Shown piece after piece: positions 26,458 through 53,032 of a stretch of DNA of 64,000 bases. The position numbers were made by a program, and so were the translations under genes. Origin of the DNA: a virus. The stretch's first letter is position 1. Every line of letters starts with the position of its first letter. Location of the stretch: positions 1-64,000 of the IMG/VR virus record IMGVR_UViG_3300022226_000004; one strand, 5' to 3'. Below the pieces are notes generated by a model. The model had not been told where the DNA came from. It saw only the letters and a program-made list of their open reading frames with translations, and did no database searches.

Positions 26458-27993
26458 ATGCCAGTTGACGCGAACGGTAGGTGGTATCCAGATATTTGTG
26501 GAAAGCAACTCGAAGTCTTCAACGCCAGGAAGCGCTACACTCTTGTTGACGGTCCAAAGAAAAGCGGGAAATCCATTGCCAATCTTCATCGCTTAGCGCG
26601 GCACTTGTGGGAGGTGCCCAGTAGAGTTGGAGTTTTCACTAAGACACTCCGCAATGCCAAGTCGGGAGGAGTCTGGAATGACTTGATCGATATTATCCTT
26701 CCGGAATGGTTCGATTCCGGGATCGGCATCCGGTTCACAACCAGAAAATCTGACGGAACCTACGGCCCAAAGCAGGATGCCAACACCAGAATGCAATACT
26801 TCAAAGTCAGAAACTCTCATGGAACACAATCTGAGGTTCAGCTCCACTCCATTGACAACGAGAGGGAAGTCGAATCCATTGCCAAAGGCACAAGGTTCTC
26901 GATGTTCTACTTTGCCGAGCTCTCAAATTTCAAGAACAGGCTAGTATTCGATATTACTAGCGATCAGCTCCGCATGCCATCAATTGCATTCGAAGATCAC
27001 ATGTGGCTTGCCGACACAAACCCTTCTGACGACGGGCCGGATAGTTGGATCTACAAGCTCTGGTATTCATTCTTGGAAATGGAGGACTGCCCCCAGCCAA
27101 ACCTTCAGCGCCACCTCCAACGAATCCAGATAATGATTGAGGACAATCCCTATCTGAGCGAAGAAGAAGTCAATGACCTCAAGGAGCGCTTTGTCTACGA
27201 CCCTGATCTTTACGCCCGATATATCGAGGGCAAATGGGTTCACGCAGTGAAGGACGCCTTGTTCGAAACCCAATTCAAGCCAGCCGTCCACGTCCTGGGT
27301 AACACAGACGCTCTAGATGAGGATCAATGGGAAATCCTACTGCCGTCAGATAACTGCTCCCAACTTCTTTCAGGATGGGATCTTGGAGACCGCTATCATT
27401 CAGCACACATCGTTGAAAAAGTTTCGACAGCTAATGGGCAGACATTCCTTGTCCTTGACGAATGCTGCAAGCTCAACCCGGAGGAGCAAGTCTCAATCAA
27501 GGACTTCACGGAAGAATTCCTGGAGCTTTACGAGTTCTGGATGAAGCGGGCAATCAATGGGCGAGTAGGCCCGGACGGAAAACCAATACTCGAGATCCCG
27601 TGGGTTCACTGGGCTGATTCGCAAGCCTTGAATTCCTACCGCAGTGGAGCAGACAACTACGATGCAAACCTGGTCTACAGCTATTCAGATGCCCGAATCG
27701 CATTCAATGCTGCCCCTAAATTTCCTGGGTCAGTCCAAACCAGAATCCGTTTAGTCAAGACACTGTTGTTTGAGGGGAGGTTGCTGATCTCGGCTAAATG
27801 CCAATCTACAATCCAGATGTTCAAATCACTGAAGGCGGGAAGTGGCGCTAAGCCAATCGCTCCATCAAAACACAGGCATCCTTTTGATTCGTTGTCCTAT
27901 CTCCTTGCCTCAGAAGAGCCATGGGGCCTCCTCGAGGATCTGGATAAAACCGGGAACGACGAAAAAGAGCCGGCCATTGTGATGATACAATGA
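26458..27993 (+). CDS. terL: terminase large subunit
   Basis: Walker A GPKKSGKS, Walker B-like MFYFAE, motif III DTNP, NPYL, RNase H-fold GWDLG and HPFDSLSY. Confidence 0.9.
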   Translation: MPVDANGRWYPDICGKQLEVFNARKRYTLVDGPKKSGKSIANLHRLARHLWEVPSRVGVFTKTLRNAKSGGVWNDLIDIILPEWFDSGIGIRFTTRKSDGTYGPKQDANTRMQYFKVRNSHGTQSEVQLHSIDNEREVESIAKGTRFSMFYFAELSNFKNRLVFDITSDQLRMPSIAFEDHMWLADTNPSDDGPDSWIYKLWYSFLEMEDCPQPNLQRHLQRIQIMIEDNPYLSEEEVNDLKERFVYDPDLYARYIEGKWVHAVKDALFETQFKPAVHVLGNTDALDEDQWEILLPSDNCSQLLSGWDLGDRYHSAHIVEKVSTANGQTFLVLDECCKLNPEEQVSIKDFTEEFLELYEFWMKRAINGRVGPDGKPILEIPWVHWADSQALNSYRSGADNYDANLVYSYSDARIAFNAAPKFPGSVQTRIRLVKTLLFEGRLLISAKCQSTIQMFKSLKAGSGAKPIAPSKHRHPFDSLSYLLASEEPWGLLEDLDKTGNDEKEPAIVMIQ

Positions 27994-35770: not shown

Positions 35771-36612
35771 TTCTGGGCTACGAACCTGAGTTCCTCTCCT
35801 AGCCCACGCACTTCAAGTTGATTAACGAAATCCACCACAGCTTCAGGTTTCACATCCGGATTAACGCTCGCAACAACCCTGGACACCTCGCTCCTGGTGT
35901 AATCTCCGATGCTTGTCCAAAACGACATGCGCCCGAAGCCAGCCATTCCCAAAGCAGCCTCCAAGGTATCCTTAGTGTAGTGAACGTAGTGGTAGTTCGC
36001 GTCTAGCCAATACCAATCCTTGCCCAAAGTCTTCGAGCAGTAGGATTCGAAATTCGGAACTATCCCAATGAACCACCCGCCAGGCCGAAGTCTGCGAATG
36101 ACCTGGTTGAGAGCCTCAAGCGGTTTCGGCATGTGTTCAAAAACGTGCATCATTGAAATCACGTCAAACCCTGTTTCAGGACAATCCTCGATCGGATCCG
36201 TAGATATCTTGAGCCCAAGTGACTCCCTTCCTCGAAATGCCATCTTGCGACAAATCTCAATACCGGAAACATCCATGCCCTCGTCCCTCAACGTAAGCAT
36301 GAAAGCGCCCCACCCACATCCAACATCAAGCGCACCACCATGCCCGAGCTCAGGCCCGACACCTCTCTCCTTGAGGTCCCTGATGAAATCGTAACGCCGC
36401 AACGCCGAGTCATTTACCTTGTCAATTCCTGGCCATGCCATGTGGCTCCCGTCATCCCCGTAATCCTGGTAGAACCCTATGAAATCCCTGACCGCATTCG
36501 ATTGCGCATACACGAGTCCACAGTGATTGCATTGCCGCACATTCGGCACTACGCTGTAGCGCGGATGGCTCTCCGCACACGCACAGAGCGGACAGTTTGG
36601 CTGAAATACCAT
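35767..36612 (-). CDS. class I SAM-dependent methyltransferase (glycan-locus type) with N-terminal Zn ribbon
   Basis: CPLC..CNHC, LDVGCGWG, FDVISMMHVFEH, LRPGG..VPN, HYVHY. Confidence 0.85.
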   Translation of the reverse strand: MVFQPNCPLCACAESHPRYSVVPNVRQCNHCGLVYAQSNAVRDFIGFYQDYGDDGSHMAWPGIDKVNDSALRRYDFIRDLKERGVGPELGHGGALDVGCGWGAFMLTLRDEGMDVSGIEICRKMAFRGRESLGLKISTDPIEDCPETGFDVISMMHVFEHMPKPLEALNQVIRRLRPGGWFIGIVPNFESYCSKTLGKDWYWLDANYHYVHYTKDTLEAALGMAGFGRMSFWTSIGDYTRSEVSRVVASVNPDVKPEAVVDFVNQLEVRGLGEELRFVAQK

Positions 36613-36626
36613 GACATCTGTTTATC

Positions 36627-36899
36627 ATGAATGGCGAAAAACCGCAATCCCGGTTTAACACCCGCACACTGTCAAGACTTGCCGAGAAGACCGGAGCAAT
36701 GGTGGTCACATTTTCAGAACCAAACATGCCAGGCCCGTTTAATGGATTCTCAACAATCGGTTACTGGGACGGAGATTGCTTCAGAAACGCCCACACCGGC
36801 CAACCATTCGCTGACTTTCCTGTCGAAGTTTCCGCCCTCGACGAAACCTGGGTCATCCCAATAAAGCTTGAAAAGCCGGGCAAGCCAGATGATCGTTAA
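36627..36899 (+). CDS. hypothetical protein
   Basis: 90 aa, divergent from the methyltransferase. Confidence 0.45.
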   Translation: MNGEKPQSRFNTRTLSRLAEKTGAMVVTFSEPNMPGPFNGFSTIGYWDGDCFRNAHTGQPFADFPVEVSALDETWVIPIKLEKPGKPDDR

Positions 36900-36904
36900 A
36901 GGAT

Positions 36905-37189
36905 ATGCCAAACAATGGACCACAACGACGGGGCGGCGAATCAATCGCAACGCCAAGCACCTTTAGTGACACTCCATCACGGGCGCCTGGGGACACCTTT
37001 GATGACTTCCTGAAGCAAACCGGTGGCGATCCAGCTCCCAGAGGAGGACATCAAGAGGCAATCAGTGACCACTTGCGGAAGATCAATGACTTCGGAAAAG
37101 AACCTAGACCTGGTTACGGGCCTGCCCCGGAACCGGAAACCTTTTCCTCGTCCCCAGAGGGAATCCTGCCTGCCGTTCAACCAGAATAA
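36905..37189 (+). CDS. hypothetical low-complexity protein
   Basis: 94 aa with AAAGGA upstream. Confidence 0.5.
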   Translation: MPNNGPQRRGGESIATPSTFSDTPSRAPGDTFDDFLKQTGGDPAPRGGHQEAISDHLRKINDFGKEPRPGYGPAPEPETFSSSPEGILPAVQPE

Positions 37190-37203
37190 AGCATCGAGCT
37201 GTA

Positions 37204-37344
37204 ATGCCCAAAGGCACTAAAGTCGAACGATGCTTCAATAAGCTGAAGCGAGAAGGGAAGCTTCCTGGGTCAGCAGCTAGAATTTGCCAGGCATCAACAG
37301 GTAAGTCGCTCAAAACTGGGAAGCCACCAAAGCGCAAGACTTGA
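37204..37344 (+). CDS. small basic protein (46 aa, not in ORF track)
   Basis: MPKGTKVERCFNKLKREGKLPGSAARICQASTGKSLKTGKPPKRKT*. Confidence 0.55.
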   Translation: MPKGTKVERCFNKLKREGKLPGSAARICQASTGKSLKTGKPPKRKT

Positions 37345-37379
37345 CAAGCTCACGATGCCAGCCAAACTGGCAATGACTT

Positions 37380-37586
37380 ATGAGCGAATATTGTATCGTG
37401 AAATGGTTCGACAACAAGAAGGGCTACGGCTTCCTTCAATGTGGAAAAAAAGATGTCTTCGTGCATCACTCGACAATCACTGCCCAGGGATTCAAAACCT
37501 TGAATGAAGGCGAACGAGTTCTAGCAGAGGTCATTGATTCCCCAAAAGGCCCTAAAGCAGTTTCTGTCACCAGAAACCCCGAATAA
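37380..37586 (+). CDS. csp: cold-shock domain protein (CspA family)
   Basis: VKWFDNKKGYGFL (RNP1), DVFVHHS (RNP2), GFKTLNEG, KGPKA; TTGACA at 37341. Confidence 0.95.
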   Translation: MSEYCIVKWFDNKKGYGFLQCGKKDVFVHHSTITAQGFKTLNEGERVLAEVIDSPKGPKAVSVTRNPE

Positions 37587-37670
37587 GGAAGCCCTCCCAG
37601 CTTTCACCAGGAGGGCCAACCCTAACAACCAAACCGCGCCAATGAGTTCCAGGCGCTGACTCAGCGTATC

Positions 37671-38206
37671 TCACGCAACCCTGAGCGTCAACGCCTTCTT
37701 GCGCCTCTCGTTAGCTTGATCCAACCTCCGTCGCCTTCCTGCCTCTCGCTTGTCTAGACAAGATTGGCACGTTGACATATGGGGCAACCCCTTTTTGCCG
37801 CCGCAAGTCGAACACTTGCCCTGAGCAAGCAGCTTCCTGATTCGCTTTCTCCTTCGCTCCCGAAACCGCATCATGCAGGTTCCACAGTGACTAGCCGTGG
37901 CTTCCTTGTCGCGCCCACAAGAACACTTTCCAATCTTCGCATACTTGGCGTGCCTCCGATCCCTCTCCGCCTTGTTCTTGAGCCGGCACCTCAAACAGGT
38001 TTTTCGCTCAGCATCCGACTCTTTCTCGCCACCACATTGGACGCAAAGCCCTTGATCGAGTCGCTCACCGTAGACCCGCTTCTTCCACTTGCGCTTCTGC
38101 TCCTTTTCAATAGCATCAGGATCCTCGGGCTTAGCTGGCGGCGCAATCAAGTCCGACCTATTTGCCACAATCCTGAGAATCTCTTCCCTCGATGGAACAC
38201 CTGTTA

Positions 38207-45876: not shown

Positions 45877-46572
45877 ATGACTACAAGAGAAGCACTATTG
45901 GAGCTGATCACCTCAGCTACCGAACCTACCAAAATCGTGACCTACGATATGGCTGACAAACTCGGCGTCAGCCAAAACGCCGTTTTCAGGGCTCTGAAAA
46001 AACTCGTCAGAGACGGGCAGATCAAGCAGGTCGGACCCTCATTGTTCGCAAACCAGTCAACCAGGGTCGAAGAAGGTGTTGTTACGCCTGTTGTTACGCC
46101 TGTTGTTACGCCTGTTGTTACGCCTGTTGTTACGCCTGTTGTTACGCCTGTTGTTACGCCTGTTGTTGAAGGTGTTGTTGAAGGTGTTGTTGACCAACCT
46201 AAGCCGCTTGGCCCCAACACCTTGGAGTCAGGCAGGTTGATAGACGCCGATATTCCGCAAGACCAGTTGGCAACCATGACCAAAGCCGAGCTCGATGAAG
46301 TGATTGCCAGCGGCCCAGAAAGGCACCAGCTGCTATGCTTGAAGGAAAAACAACGCAGAAAACAAGCACAGGACCTCACCAAACTCCCGCAAGGCATGAC
46401 CCTCGATCAATTCTACCGCCAGGAAAACAAGGAGATCTCCAAGAAAAAGGTCGATAGGCTCATCGAAACCATGACCGATGACCCAAAATACGCTGATACC
46501 CTCGGAGTTTGGGCTGTTCCAAATATCACGGAAAGAAAACTCACCCTCCCGGCCCCAGAACCCAAGAACTAA
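45877..46572 (+). CDS. winged-HTH replication-initiator-like protein with internal repeats
   Basis: YDMADKLGVSQNAVFRALKKLVRDGQI followed by (TPVV)7. Confidence 0.55.
   Translation: MTTREALLELITSATEPTKIVTYDMADKLGVSQNAVFRALKKLVRDGQIKQVGPSLFANQSTRVEEGVVTPVVTPVVTPVVTPVVTPVVTPVVTPVVEGVVEGVVDQPKPLGPNTLESGRLIDADIPQDQLATMTKAELDEVIASGPERHQLLCLKEKQRRKQAQDLTKLPQGMTLDQFYRQENKEISKKKVDRLIETMTDDPKYADTLGVWAVPNITERKLTLPAPEPKN
46072..46191 (+). repeat. 12-bp tandem repeat array
   Basis: GTTACGCCTGTT x7 (46081-46164) flanked by GAAGGTGTTGTT variants. Confidence 0.95.
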
Positions 46573-47180
46573 TGCCCCCTGAGATCCATCTCGTTAAAAC
46601 CCAACCACTTATCACAACGGCTGATGTCACTGAAATCTGGAAACGAAATAAGGGCGTCCATACCAAAATCTTTGAGATCGCGAGACTCATGAAGCAAAGA
46701 TCTAGCTACGAACCAAGCTGGCCCGAATTCGAGCTGACCGCCCGCACGATCATCAAGTTCTTTGAAACCATCCCTGAAATGCTGGACAGCGAGTTCAATG
46801 ACCTGGAACTCCTGGCGAATCGCCTCAATAGAGACTTCACCAAGGTCATGATCCCAACCAATTTCTGGGAAGAATGGCTCACAATACACGAAAACCCTCA
46901 CCCTGTTGCCCGCGTCTTCTTCCATGATCGTTGCATGTATCGCTCCTTAGCCAACTTCGTGGAACTAGCGAGTGCCAGAAGAAAGAGCTTCCCAATGCCT
47001 CAATACCAAATCGCAGCGCTCTTGAAACGCCCAAGATCTAATGTCCGCGATAGCATCGATCTCCTTCTAACTAAGAAAGTTATAGCAAAAACCAGGGCCG
47101 CAATCCCAAAGACCAGGGCCGCAGAATACAGCCTCGATCGGAACTGGATCCCACTATGCTCAGAAAACCACGCCACATAG
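46572..47180 (+). CDS. protein with C-terminal wHTH (replication-associated?)
   Basis: FPMPQYQIAALLKRPRSNVRDSIDLL..RAAEY; TAATG coupling. Confidence 0.5.
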   Translation: MPPEIHLVKTQPLITTADVTEIWKRNKGVHTKIFEIARLMKQRSSYEPSWPEFELTARTIIKFFETIPEMLDSEFNDLELLANRLNRDFTKVMIPTNFWEEWLTIHENPHPVARVFFHDRCMYRSLANFVELASARRKSFPMPQYQIAALLKRPRSNVRDSIDLLLTKKVIAKTRAAIPKTRAAEYSLDRNWIPLCSENHAT

Positions 47181-47266
47181 AGAAACCCCGCCGCATAGAG
47201 CGATGACAAAAACCACGCCCTCAGGACCCCTCATGAATCTCCAGGACCCCTCAGGAATCTCCAGGA
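47164..47266 (+). repeat. iteron-like direct repeats
   Basis: AAACC(A/C)CGCC x3 then CAGGACCCCTCA(T/G)GAATCTC x2 plus a partial copy, 20-bp period. Confidence 0.8.
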
Positions 47267-47336
47267 TAGGAGGTGTGGAGGAAAGGCCATCTTTTGTCCA
47301 ACGGACGCTAGCTCATTTGCCATAAAAACCAAAACC

Positions 47337-47525
47337 ATGAAATGTCTCATCATCGGTTCCAGAAACGGGAAGATCACCGACGTAGGCCTAGTCGATCACG
47401 ACAAATGGTTCCATCTCAACCCCCCTGGCGTAGATCGCCTCACCATCATCGATGACTTCAACCCCCTTGACTGGACTAACTCCAGGATCTTCCAAGCCTG
47501 GGAAACCTTGAATCACCTTGACTAA
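47337..47525 (+). CDS. small protein, paralog A
   Basis: Aligns with 47943-48134. Confidence 0.6.
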   Translation: MKCLIIGSRNGKITDVGLVDHDKWFHLNPPGVDRLTIIDDFNPLDWTNSRIFQAWETLNHLD

Positions 47526-47552
47526 CCCAACCACCTAAGCCGCACTCAACCC

Positions 47553-47840
47553 ATGAGTCGTAAATTCAACGAAGGAACTGAGTTCACCGTCAGAAACTCA
47601 AAGTCAACCTACCGAGTCTCTCATCGCTTCGGAAACAAGATCGTCGTTACCGCACTCGACGAACACGGCGATACCCACTTCGAAGTCATGGTCGTCCGAA
47701 CCCATAAACACGACCACACCCTAGAAAACCGGGTCGTCCACCTCGCCGGCGATGAGTTCCTCCCTTCGCCCAACGAATGGGGAACCTACGGATGGACTCC
47801 CACATCCCTGAATCGCGCTCTACAAATCGCTCAGGAATAG
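47553..47840 (+). CDS. hypothetical protein
   Basis: 95 aa; LPSPNEWGTYGWT. Confidence 0.6.
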   Translation: MSRKFNEGTEFTVRNSKSTYRVSHRFGNKIVVTALDEHGDTHFEVMVVRTHKHDHTLENRVVHLAGDEFLPSPNEWGTYGWTPTSLNRALQIAQE

Positions 47841-47942
47841 CCTTTCTTCGTGTATGCACCCACCATATTTTCCATTTGAAGACACCAAGGGTATCTTTTC
47901 ATGATCCCAGCCATCCAAACGCTTAAAGGCGAAAGCACTGAA

Positions 47943-48134
47943 ATGAACCTTCTAATCGCTTCCAAAAACGGGGAAATCACGTCTGTCCTCGCTCTCCAAA
48001 TCCCTTGGATACCAACCTTCAACCCAAACCTCTGTGACCGCATCACCTTCATCCAAAACTTCCGCCCCGGTGACTGGACCAATTCTCCCGTCCTCAAAAT
48101 CTTCTCAGACGCCTTCCCTTCAACTAGCCATTAG
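47943..48134 (+). CDS. small protein, paralog B
   Basis: SKNGEITSV..NP..DRIT.I..F.P.DWTNS pattern shared with paralog A. Confidence 0.6.
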   Translation: MNLLIASKNGEITSVLALQIPWIPTFNPNLCDRITFIQNFRPGDWTNSPVLKIFSDAFPSTSH

Positions 48135-48254
48135 TATGTGTGAGAGGGACCCATTATACTGAAAAGCGACTACCCCCCTTACCCCTCCCCCTACCGGGTT
48201 GTAGATATACTTGTCGATTACGCAAGTAACCTAATGGCAGCACGTTACAAAAGT

Positions 48255-48872
48255 CTCCCTTGACTAGATCCTATTCGTCGAGTTAGGGAGCTGCAGCGAT
48301 TTCAGGCTCATTGGAGCAGAACGAAGTCAACGTAAACGAAAGTTTGCAAGGCCAGACAGGAGTCTGCAAACCAAGCAAACCCAAATGCTGGACGCCACTA
48401 GCATGGGGTTGATCAGAATCGGATGGCCAAGCGGCCGCGACGTTGAATCACGTATCTCTCGACTTCGCTCTATCTGAGAGCAATGAGACGCGAGGAGCAC
48501 GCAAGCCAAGATCCGAGGGCGCCAACTGCTGGAAGTGTTGGTTGCACGCGACGAGAAGATCGCCAGCCACTAGGTGTGGGCCGAAACGAGTCGAGAGACT
48601 GCCGGTGAACTAGGTTTATCCTAGCATGAGCGAAGCGGGGCGTGACGTAAAGGTTAGGTGTAGTGAGCACGGGAGTCGGGAGACAAGCCTCTCACGGATT
48701 CAATGGAACGGGTTAAAGGCCAAAGGGCTTGCTTATGGTGAGCCGGTCAACCAAGAGCGGAACAGTGGTTCAAGACTGCAACAAGATTCCGCCAAGGGAA
48801 AGGCCTTTGTTCAACCGTTCCTTGAACCGAGTCGCAGAAAGCAAGTCATGGTGACAAGCGGGCGATTCGGTT
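48255..48872 (+). ncRNA. candidate large structured non-coding RNA (~620 nt)
   Basis: Nested long-range helices and many local hairpins including a GAAA tetraloop; G-U pairs favour the plus strand. Confidence 0.6.
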
Positions 48873-48884
48873 ACAAGGAATGAT

Positions 48885-49352
48885 ATGAACGCTATTGTAA
48901 GATCCAAGGTCCAAGAGAAATCCATCAAGATTGGCCGACGCGAGGTTCCGCTGAACGATTGCCTAGTGACGCGAGTGACTGCGACAGGAGCCGCGTCATT
49001 GGTTCCGATTAGTCGCAAGGCATTGCGTGAGCGGAATGATTTGACGGCATCGGAGGCCAAGCGGGCGCATCGCGAGGTTTGCATTCATTTAAAGCAAGTG
49101 CAAGCTGGTGTTTTCGCGTCACTATCGGCGAACAGTGATTTCGTGGGGCTTGGGTTCAAGCAGAACGCGAAGGGTAATCGCATCAGTTTTGAGCTCGAGC
49201 ATCGCCTTCCTGAATCGGAGCAATCATCGCGAGCCATCCGCCTAGCGGAGGACAACGCAATGCTCAAGGAGGACAATGAAGTGTTGGCGGCCAAGTTGGA
49301 GGCCATGGAGAAGATGTTACGCGACGCCGGGCTTTTGAAAGACAAGGCCTAG
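48885..49352 (+). CDS. first early gene, hypothetical with C-terminal coiled coil
   Basis: AAGGA immediately after the last predicted RNA helix. Confidence 0.65.
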   Translation: MNAIVRSKVQEKSIKIGRREVPLNDCLVTRVTATGAASLVPISRKALRERNDLTASEAKRAHREVCIHLKQVQAGVFASLSANSDFVGLGFKQNAKGNRISFELEHRLPESEQSSRAIRLAEDNAMLKEDNEVLAAKLEAMEKMLRDAGLLKDKA

Positions 49353-49406
49353 CTCCAGGGTGTCCCTAACGACCAAGCCTAACGACTATGACAGCGAAAG
49401 GAAGTA

Positions 49407-52808: not shown

Positions 52809-53032
52809 GCGTGGGTTCTTGGATTGCCCTTCATACTTGCGACGCGTGACGCAAGGCCAACCACTGGGATCACGCAATTACTTTCGGCAGGACATACACT
52901 GTCGTCAGCAGGCTCCCTTCGGGGTCGAGCTGACATGCGTGAGTGCGCAATCCCGTGGGCAAACCACGGACAAGAAACGCTGAGACGAACAACAACAAGC
53001 TGATTAGGGGTGCCGCATCAACACGGCACCCC
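52809..53032 (+). ncRNA. candidate structured RNA (~220 nt)
   Basis: Nested helices, C(UUCG)G hairpin, GCAAA-loop hairpin, terminal 9-bp hairpin. Confidence 0.55.

Follow-up and report, generated by a model that had tools for sequence, protein, structure and literature searches.

A candidate bistable leader RNA preceding an early ORFan gene of an uncultured sediment phage

The 3′ ~370 nucleotides (nt) of a 750-nt gap in the early region of an uncultured sediment phage form a real, conserved non-coding structure. We tentatively propose that this stretch (positions 48516-48884, plus strand) acts in cis as a bistable leader controlling translation of the gene that follows, an ORFan whose product is 155 amino acids (aa) long. 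The proposal draws on predicted folding energies and on the comparison of two genomes, and we find it plausible, though we would stop a little short of calling it probable. Because phage genomes are tightly packed, 750 non-coding bases whose length has been kept in two diverged phages come at a cost and probably serve a function. Should the switch prove real, an early operon of a barely annotated phage lineage would begin with a translational control element of unusual size, and this element would offer a handle on the timing of early expression in such phages.

The gap, its neighbors and its relatives

The window, by which we mean the whole stretch of DNA that was analyzed, covers the first 64 kb of an IMG/VR phage record that is 76,991 bp long. 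The phage (labeled G000 here) is uncultured and comes from sediment, and nearly all of its proteins lack annotation. The gap (48135-48884) lies between a plus-strand gene for 77 aa (47901-48134) and the plus-strand ORFan gene for 155 aa (48885-49352), which is presumed to be the regulated gene. The 155-aa protein has a C-terminal coiled-coil-like tail, and no Pfam or PHROG family and no Protein Atlas lead was found for it. The Shine-Dalgarno (SD) sequence and start codon of this gene (48875-48887) consist of AAGGA at 48875-79 and ATG at 48885, and AAGGA(G) located 5-9 nt upstream of many G000 early genes is the usual SD. Genes to the right of the gap mostly use AAGGA(G), unlike the five plus-strand genes to its left (45877-48134), which have A/C-rich leaders devoid of an SD, and thus the two modules differ in their translation signals. 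The 77-aa protein and a 62-aa protein (47337-47525) are paralogs with a common C-terminal D-W-T-N-S motif. A 75-aa homolog of this pair is encoded at the same place in the relative described below (L005 110-337), and no family is known for it.

The original prediction described the gap as the longest gene-free stretch of the genome. This could not be verified as stated, because an interval of ~1 kb at 36.6-37.7 kb (36612-37671) carries only small ORFs, none of them of at least 100 aa, and thus the studied gap may not be the longest gene-free stretch of the window. The DNA of this other interval is partly conserved in the relative.

The sole retrievable relative with the same locus is a sediment phage of 73,174 bp (IMGVR_UViG_3300022413_000008; labeled G001). 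Its gap of 752 nt, versus 750 nt in G000, is situated between homologs of the same two genes. The structural genes of the two phages are collinear and exhibit 65-73% DNA identity, and their early regions (43.8-55.4 kb) give no blastn match. Within 47900-49400, the only DNA matches to G001 are three collinear short blocks, all of which are located in the gap. The 155-aa protein is 51% identical to its G001 homolog and 86% identical to a copy (P0002) encoded on a 1338-bp Logan contig, which represents a third relative.

Other searches returned little more. Comparison with GenBank phages by blastn revealed nothing, protein-guided scans of IMG/VR and JGI metagenomes yielded G001 only, and DNA-pattern scans of IMG/VR and GTDB genomes yielded G001 plus chance matches lacking the remaining motifs. 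Two distant terminase relatives are 8-13-kb fragments that do not carry the element. Seven sequencing runs, all of DNA from sediment or estuary metagenomes, contain the stretch or parts of it, and the contigs from those runs are short identical fragments with no variants. The large terminase itself (26458-27993) has one relative with 81% identity in IMG/VR, and its similarity to GenBank phages is confined to the haloarchaeal tailed viruses HVTV-1 and HVTV-2 (27.6% identity over half its length).

The gap is non-coding. Its largest ORF (85 aa, 48626-48883) carries no conserved coding signal, as the original prediction had supposed, given that G001 has no equivalent ORF; no Pfam or PHROG match was found for it either. 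A six-frame tblastn search of 47900-49352 against G001 found nothing inside 48160-48880, and this same search recovers both flanking genes (E = 3e-48 and 2e-4). The original prediction had also suggested a possibly new class of RNA. Consistent with this, cmscan with Rfam 15 produced no matches in the whole window at the gathering score, and none for 48100-48950 or its G001 counterpart on either strand at E ≤ 10. Thus, no covariance model for ROOL, GOLLD, OLE or any other Rfam 15 family recognizes the element. ARAGORN detected no tRNA and no tmRNA in the 64-kb window, and no second copy of the element was found in the G000 genome. The element belongs to no described family, and with further members it could qualify as a new Rfam family. 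These results do not show a new giant RNA class, and we tentatively describe the element instead as an unclassified regulatory leader.

Conserved structure and conserved DNA within the gap

All of the complementarities listed in the original prediction were found where it had placed them. The pair 48455-64/48589-98 is a perfect 10-bp inverted repeat, the inverted repeat 48705-16/48810-21 was likewise found, and the pairing 48441-53/48694-705 is used in the full-length MFE fold. Every fold contains 48825-35/48862-72, GCGGAA/TTCCGC and GGCTTGC/GTGAGCC. Excess stability over dinucleotide shuffles was confirmed as well, with the plus strand of 48255-48872 folding at -223 kcal/mol (z = -2.95; matched by none of 20 shuffles) and the minus strand giving z = -1.6. 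When 200 shuffles were used, z was -3.80 for 48690-48884 and -3.02 for 48196-48495. The 150-nt window with the lowest score is 48735-48884 (z = -6.4), and flanking coding windows scatter near 0.

Stable structures also occur elsewhere in this part of the genome. A second compact early-region structure at 52809-53032 (-90.6 kcal/mol, z = -3.75, 0 of 200 shuffles as good) overlaps small unconserved ORFs. In both phages, folding is also unusually stable toward the 5′ end of the gene for the 155-aa protein (48935-49084; L005 1088-1287 in G001), with z = -2.3 and -2.9 to -3.4 in the two, and a 25-nt imperfect inverted repeat (48946-70/49012-36) is located inside this gene.

The notion of a single, multi-domain RNA of ~620 nt did not withstand comparison with G001, because the 5′ ~320 nt are unalignable with that genome and their counterpart there shows no excess stability. 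This variable 5′ half (48196-48515, plus strand) carries hairpins specific to G000, including CTCCCT/AGGGAG, GTAAAC-GAAA-GTTTGC, CAGAC/GTCTG and ATGCTGG/CTAGCAT. It is 39% identical to G001 after alignment, no consensus structure emerged under six MAFFT settings (z of -0.2 to +1.5), and the G001 counterpart exhibits no excess stability (z = -0.17). Two of the long-range helices proposed earlier fare no better. The complementarity 48455-64/48589-98 exists but the helix is not supported, and in both phages its 3′ arm is taken up by a local GNRA hairpin, kept with compensatory changes (AGTC-GAGA-GACT in G000 versus GGTG-GAAA-CACC in G001). Similarly, 48441-53/48694-705 is present in the G000 MFE fold but lacks a counterpart at the matching position in G001, where the upstream partner of 48694-705 is ~440 nt away as opposed to ~250 nt in G000.

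For the 3′ part, a structure shared with G001 and compensatory changes were both found. This half is 56% identical in the two phages, compared to 54% for the neighboring protein gene, and it includes exact blocks of 15, 11, 11 and 9 nt. With a MAFFT alignment made from sequence only, the consensus fold reaches -66.1 kcal/mol versus -37.1 ± 4.7 for column shuffles (z = -6.2, SCI 0.50, 0 of 100 column shuffles as good), and alignment columns 470-620, which hold hairpins H1-H4, give an SCI of 0.77 and z = -6.1; consensus-energy z-scores, like compensatory-pair counts, are measures that have been warned of as misleading (PMC11234323). A hand-curated set of helices (H1-H5, H7, H7a, the H8 inner stem H8i, H9 and an alternative H6), chosen with both sequences in view, comprises 64 bp, of which 46 are identical, five have one-sided changes, 13 have double compensatory changes and none is broken, and for a comparison of two sequences such covariation lies below R-scape-type significance. 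All five one-sided changes stay G·U on the plus strand. Examples of compensation include AAAGGCC/GGCCTTT, which becomes AGACGCC/GGCGTCT, and CTAGG/CCTAG, which becomes GTGAG/CTCAC.

The conserved part begins with four plus-strand hairpins (48516-48624), namely H1 (48522-41), H2 (48567-79), H3 (48580-606), which is nested and has a GNRA loop (GAGA/GAAA), and H4 (48610-24). RNAalifold retrieves all four from the sequence-only alignment, and they carry nine double compensatory changes and one single change, with no pair broken. A sequence-conserved core (48626-48711) follows, which includes the elements AGCGARGC-GGGGC, ACGTAAA, GTAGTGAGC, TCTCACGGATT and GGAACGGGTTA and has exact blocks of 11, 11, 9 and 7 nt common to G000 and G001. 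Within the core is either hairpin H5 (48658-70), which has one compensatory change, or the alternative helix H6 (GTGAG/CTCAC, 48663-67/48691-95), which is invariant and hence offers no covariation. The H7 domain (48695-48829) is a three-way junction with the closing helix 48695-48711/48815-48829, the interior helix H7a (48715-21/48802-08) and the arms H7b (48726-44) and H7c (48757-92). Independent MFE folds of both phages yield the same H7 architecture (-54.0 and -53.8 kcal/mol). H7a has two compensatory changes, the closing helix has three one-sided changes kept as G·U, and H7b, H7c and H8 occupy the same positions in G001 with unrelated sequences.

A one-branch permutation test, in which pairs are predicted from one sequence alone and substitution sites are randomized, gave mixed results that leave the strand and the exact pairs unsettled. 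The structure taken from G001 was significant (P = 0.0008-0.03), as was the minus strand (P = 0.0002-0.05), and the G000 plus-strand MFE pairs projected on G001 gave no signal (P = 0.7-0.9). The latter outcome arises because the global MFE of G000 prefers unshared long-range pairs, a class that includes the helices 48455-64/48589-98 and 48441-53/48694-705. A LocARNA-like structural aligner was also tried; it aligned arbitrary hairpins and counted 91-103 'compensatory' pairs, and this result was discarded as overfit.

The assignment of the RNA to the plus strand, also made in the original prediction, holds in part. Lower energies, changes of the G·U type, gene orientation and the pairing with the SD speak for it, but the minus-strand projection is also significant. 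The predicted folds reach -71.3 kcal/mol on the plus strand versus -58.6 kcal/mol on the minus strand (z of -3.8 versus -2.9), and the consensus folds reach -66.1 versus -49.5 kcal/mol. On these calculated energies, the plus strand is favored for a structured RNA.

Perhaps the region is a decaying spacer with no selected function, whose hairpins and shared blocks are products of chance and shared ancestry. Such a view can draw on the availability of just two genomes, the neutral appearance of the 5′ half and the one null projection test. However, the early region is otherwise unalignable by blastn, and yet the non-coding part is 56% identical and retains exact blocks of 15, 11 and 11 nt. Furthermore, substitutions in helices are pairwise, with 0 of the 64 curated pairs broken, and the consensus fold scores z = -6.2. 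We consider it very unlikely that the region lacks a selected function.

Two DNA segments near the start of the gap are conserved as well. A 30-nt block, CATTAG-W-ATGTGTGA..GGGACCCATTATA (48129-48158), starts at the stop codon of the 77-aa gene, is ~90% identical in G001 (354-383) and is unique in the window at three or fewer mismatches. A C-rich tract (48171-48192), which is G-rich on the minus strand, is conserved in G001 at 407-425. Cumulative GC skew has its minimum at 48 kb, where the value changes from -126 to +91 G-C per kb; this change, at 48.1-48.2 kb, is the sharpest in the genome and is found at the same locus in G001 (L012 1-430). Plus-strand genes at 45.8-48.1 kb have the 'wrong' (C-rich) skew. 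The block and the tract may be a promoter, operator or origin element. Scans of the region for a sigma-70 consensus promoter and for an intrinsic terminator predicted none, and duplex predictions gave no specific pairing between the C-tract and the G-runs downstream of it.

It could be speculated from these features that the region functions as DNA, either as a replication origin or as a packaging region, through single-stranded hairpins or a primer transcript at the C/G-rich tract. The skew switch, the unique 30-nt block and C-tract that adjoin it, and minus-strand structure projections that are as significant as those of the plus strand are consistent with this idea. However, ~330 nt separate the skew switch and the blocks (48129-48192) from the conserved structure downstream. 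Neither iterons nor an AT-rich unwinding region was found, with direct repeats limited to chance-sized pairs, and the skew switch precedes the structure, whereas in a ColE1-like origin it would be expected at the transcript's 3′ end. Moreover, one-sided changes are tolerated as G·U on the plus strand only, and the structure ends exactly at the SD. An element acting at the DNA level therefore strikes us as most improbable.

Predicted alternative pairings at the Shine-Dalgarno sequence

The original prediction had the last helix end just before the SD of the gene at 48885, and the last helices indeed touch this SD. The longest exact match between G000 and G001 in the region is the 15-nt segment TTCAACCGTTCCTTG (48810-48824), which has two possible partners. 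One is 48695-48711, with which it closes H7 (CGG-A-TTCAA-T-GGAACGG versus CCGTTCC-TTGAA-CCG). The other is CAAGGAA (48874-48880), with which it forms H9 and covers the AAGGA SD. In the predicted folds, H9 (48818-24/48874-80) is stacked on the terminal hairpin H8 (48825-35/48862-72), and this plus-strand unit (48818-48880) and the H7 closing helix are rivals for 48815-48829. The H9 and H8 pairings together create a near-continuous duplex of 9 + 11 = 20 bp in G000 and 9 + 13 = 22 bp in G001, interrupted by one small bulge or loop, and the H8/H9 stack emerges from the independent folds of both phages. In G001, H8 is a 13-bp hairpin of unrelated sequence in the same place.

Folds that were forced to contain H7 have energies of -70.9 kcal/mol in G000 and -79.1 kcal/mol in G001, and those forced to contain H9 reach -74.5 and -79.8 kcal/mol, respectively. 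The two forms are thus 0.7-3.6 kcal/mol apart and near-isoenergetic in both phages, and by these calculations the dual pairing is possible in each. The predicted probability that the SD is unpaired is ≤0.06 in the full-length folds of both. The mutually exclusive helices H7 and H9/H8, one of which occludes the SD, are predicted from energies, and because the arms of H7z and H9 are invariant, the switch has no support from covariation.

If the element is a leader, it would form part of the plus-strand message for the 155-aa protein, either at the true 5′ end or in an intercistronic position. In the open form, 48810-48824 would pair with 48695-48711 to close H7 and leave the AAGGA SD free. In the closed form, the same segment would pair with 48874-48880 to form H9 on H8, and the SD would be buried in the 20-22-bp duplex. 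The closed form would be slightly favored at equilibrium, such that translation might occur while the transcript is still being made, or once a trigger has tipped the balance. Since H7 would be transcribed ahead of the 3′ arm of H9, the growing RNA should adopt the open form before the closed one. A factor that binds the core (48626-48711) and a cut by RNase III in the long duplex are candidate triggers. We infer plus-strand transcription, a working switch and the identity of the trigger alike. The context is supportive of a leader, given the same gap length and flanking genes in G001, the neighbors on the plus strand and the absence of a predicted terminator.

It is also conceivable that the element serves mainly in RNA processing or stability, with the H8/H9 duplex acting as an RNase III-type site and no regulated switch. 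In this case, early messages would be separated or activated at the duplex, with protection of the mRNA falling to the hairpins upstream. The near-continuous duplex directly 5′ of the start codon (20 bp in G000, 22 bp in G001), which is kept in place with wholly different sequence and is reminiscent of T7 early-region and lambda N-leader sites, fits this idea. Indeed, H9 and H8 together attain the length of at least ~20 near-continuous bp expected for an RNase III-processed leader, which makes the duplex a candidate for cleavage. However, processing would leave unexplained both the invariant core (48626-48711) and the fact that the switching block has a second, conserved partner. We judge processing as the main role, and the division of labor between duplex and hairpins that goes with it, to be unlikely.

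The original prediction had allowed for either a trans-acting RNA or a giant 5′ leader. The latter fits better than a trans-acting RNA like ROOL or GOLLD. A stand-alone, trans-acting large ncRNA of ~370-700 nt, representing a new class whose 3′ end happens to abut a gene, would be in keeping with a long non-coding gap of conserved length in a dense genome, with the many hairpins, GNRA loops and conserved unpaired core, and with the lack of matches to known families. Such an RNA is nevertheless improbable, given that the 5′ half lacks both conservation and excess stability in G001, that no terminator is predicted between the region and the 155-aa gene, and that the most conserved block pairs with the SD of this gene. 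Furthermore, the region has no tRNA neighbors and no second genome copy.

Perhaps the core and the H7 three-way junction act as sensor in a novel class of large phage riboregulators, or else they belong to an independent ncRNA to which a host or phage factor binds. This idea is unlikely, and either option would so far be restricted to a lineage of uncultured sediment phages without cultured relatives.

Comparison with known systems

ROOL and GOLLD are large, highly structured RNAs of unknown function that are often carried by phages or prophages (PMC12286853). The element examined here would be similar as a large, highly structured, phage-borne RNA, but neither covariance model matches the G000 or the G001 stretch. 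ROOL and GOLLD are often found near tRNA genes, whereas the 64-kb window of G000 has none according to ARAGORN. They also have hundreds to thousands of representatives, versus two in the present case, and here just the 3′ ~370 nt are conserved and are tied to the start of a gene.

Primer transcripts at origins are exemplified by ColE1 RNA II. The likeness consists of a structured RNA of several hundred nt beside a candidate origin and a C/G-rich tract. However, the C-tract is located 5′ of the plus-strand RNA in the phage rather than at its 3′ end, the structure ends at the SD, and neither a promoter nor an RNase H site is evident.

The proposed leader resembles riboswitches and other riboregulator platforms, in that a switching sequence would have two exclusive partners, one of which is the SD. 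As in those platforms, a conserved and largely unpaired core lies upstream, and helices vary while junction sequences are fixed. In contrast to known riboswitches, the element matches no Rfam riboswitch model at E ≤ 10 and is much longer than usual at ~370 nt. Because the presumed regulated gene is an ORFan, it gives no metabolic or ligand hint.

Bistable or RNase III-processed leaders of phage early genes are known from lambda, as in the cIII and N leaders, and from the early RNase III sites of T7. The element described here has no sequence relationship to these leaders, is several times larger and includes a three-way-junction domain. The proposed arrangement has in common with them that alternative folds or a long duplex would govern access to the ribosome-binding site in the leader of a phage early gene, and its 20-22-bp duplex has the length of an RNase III substrate.
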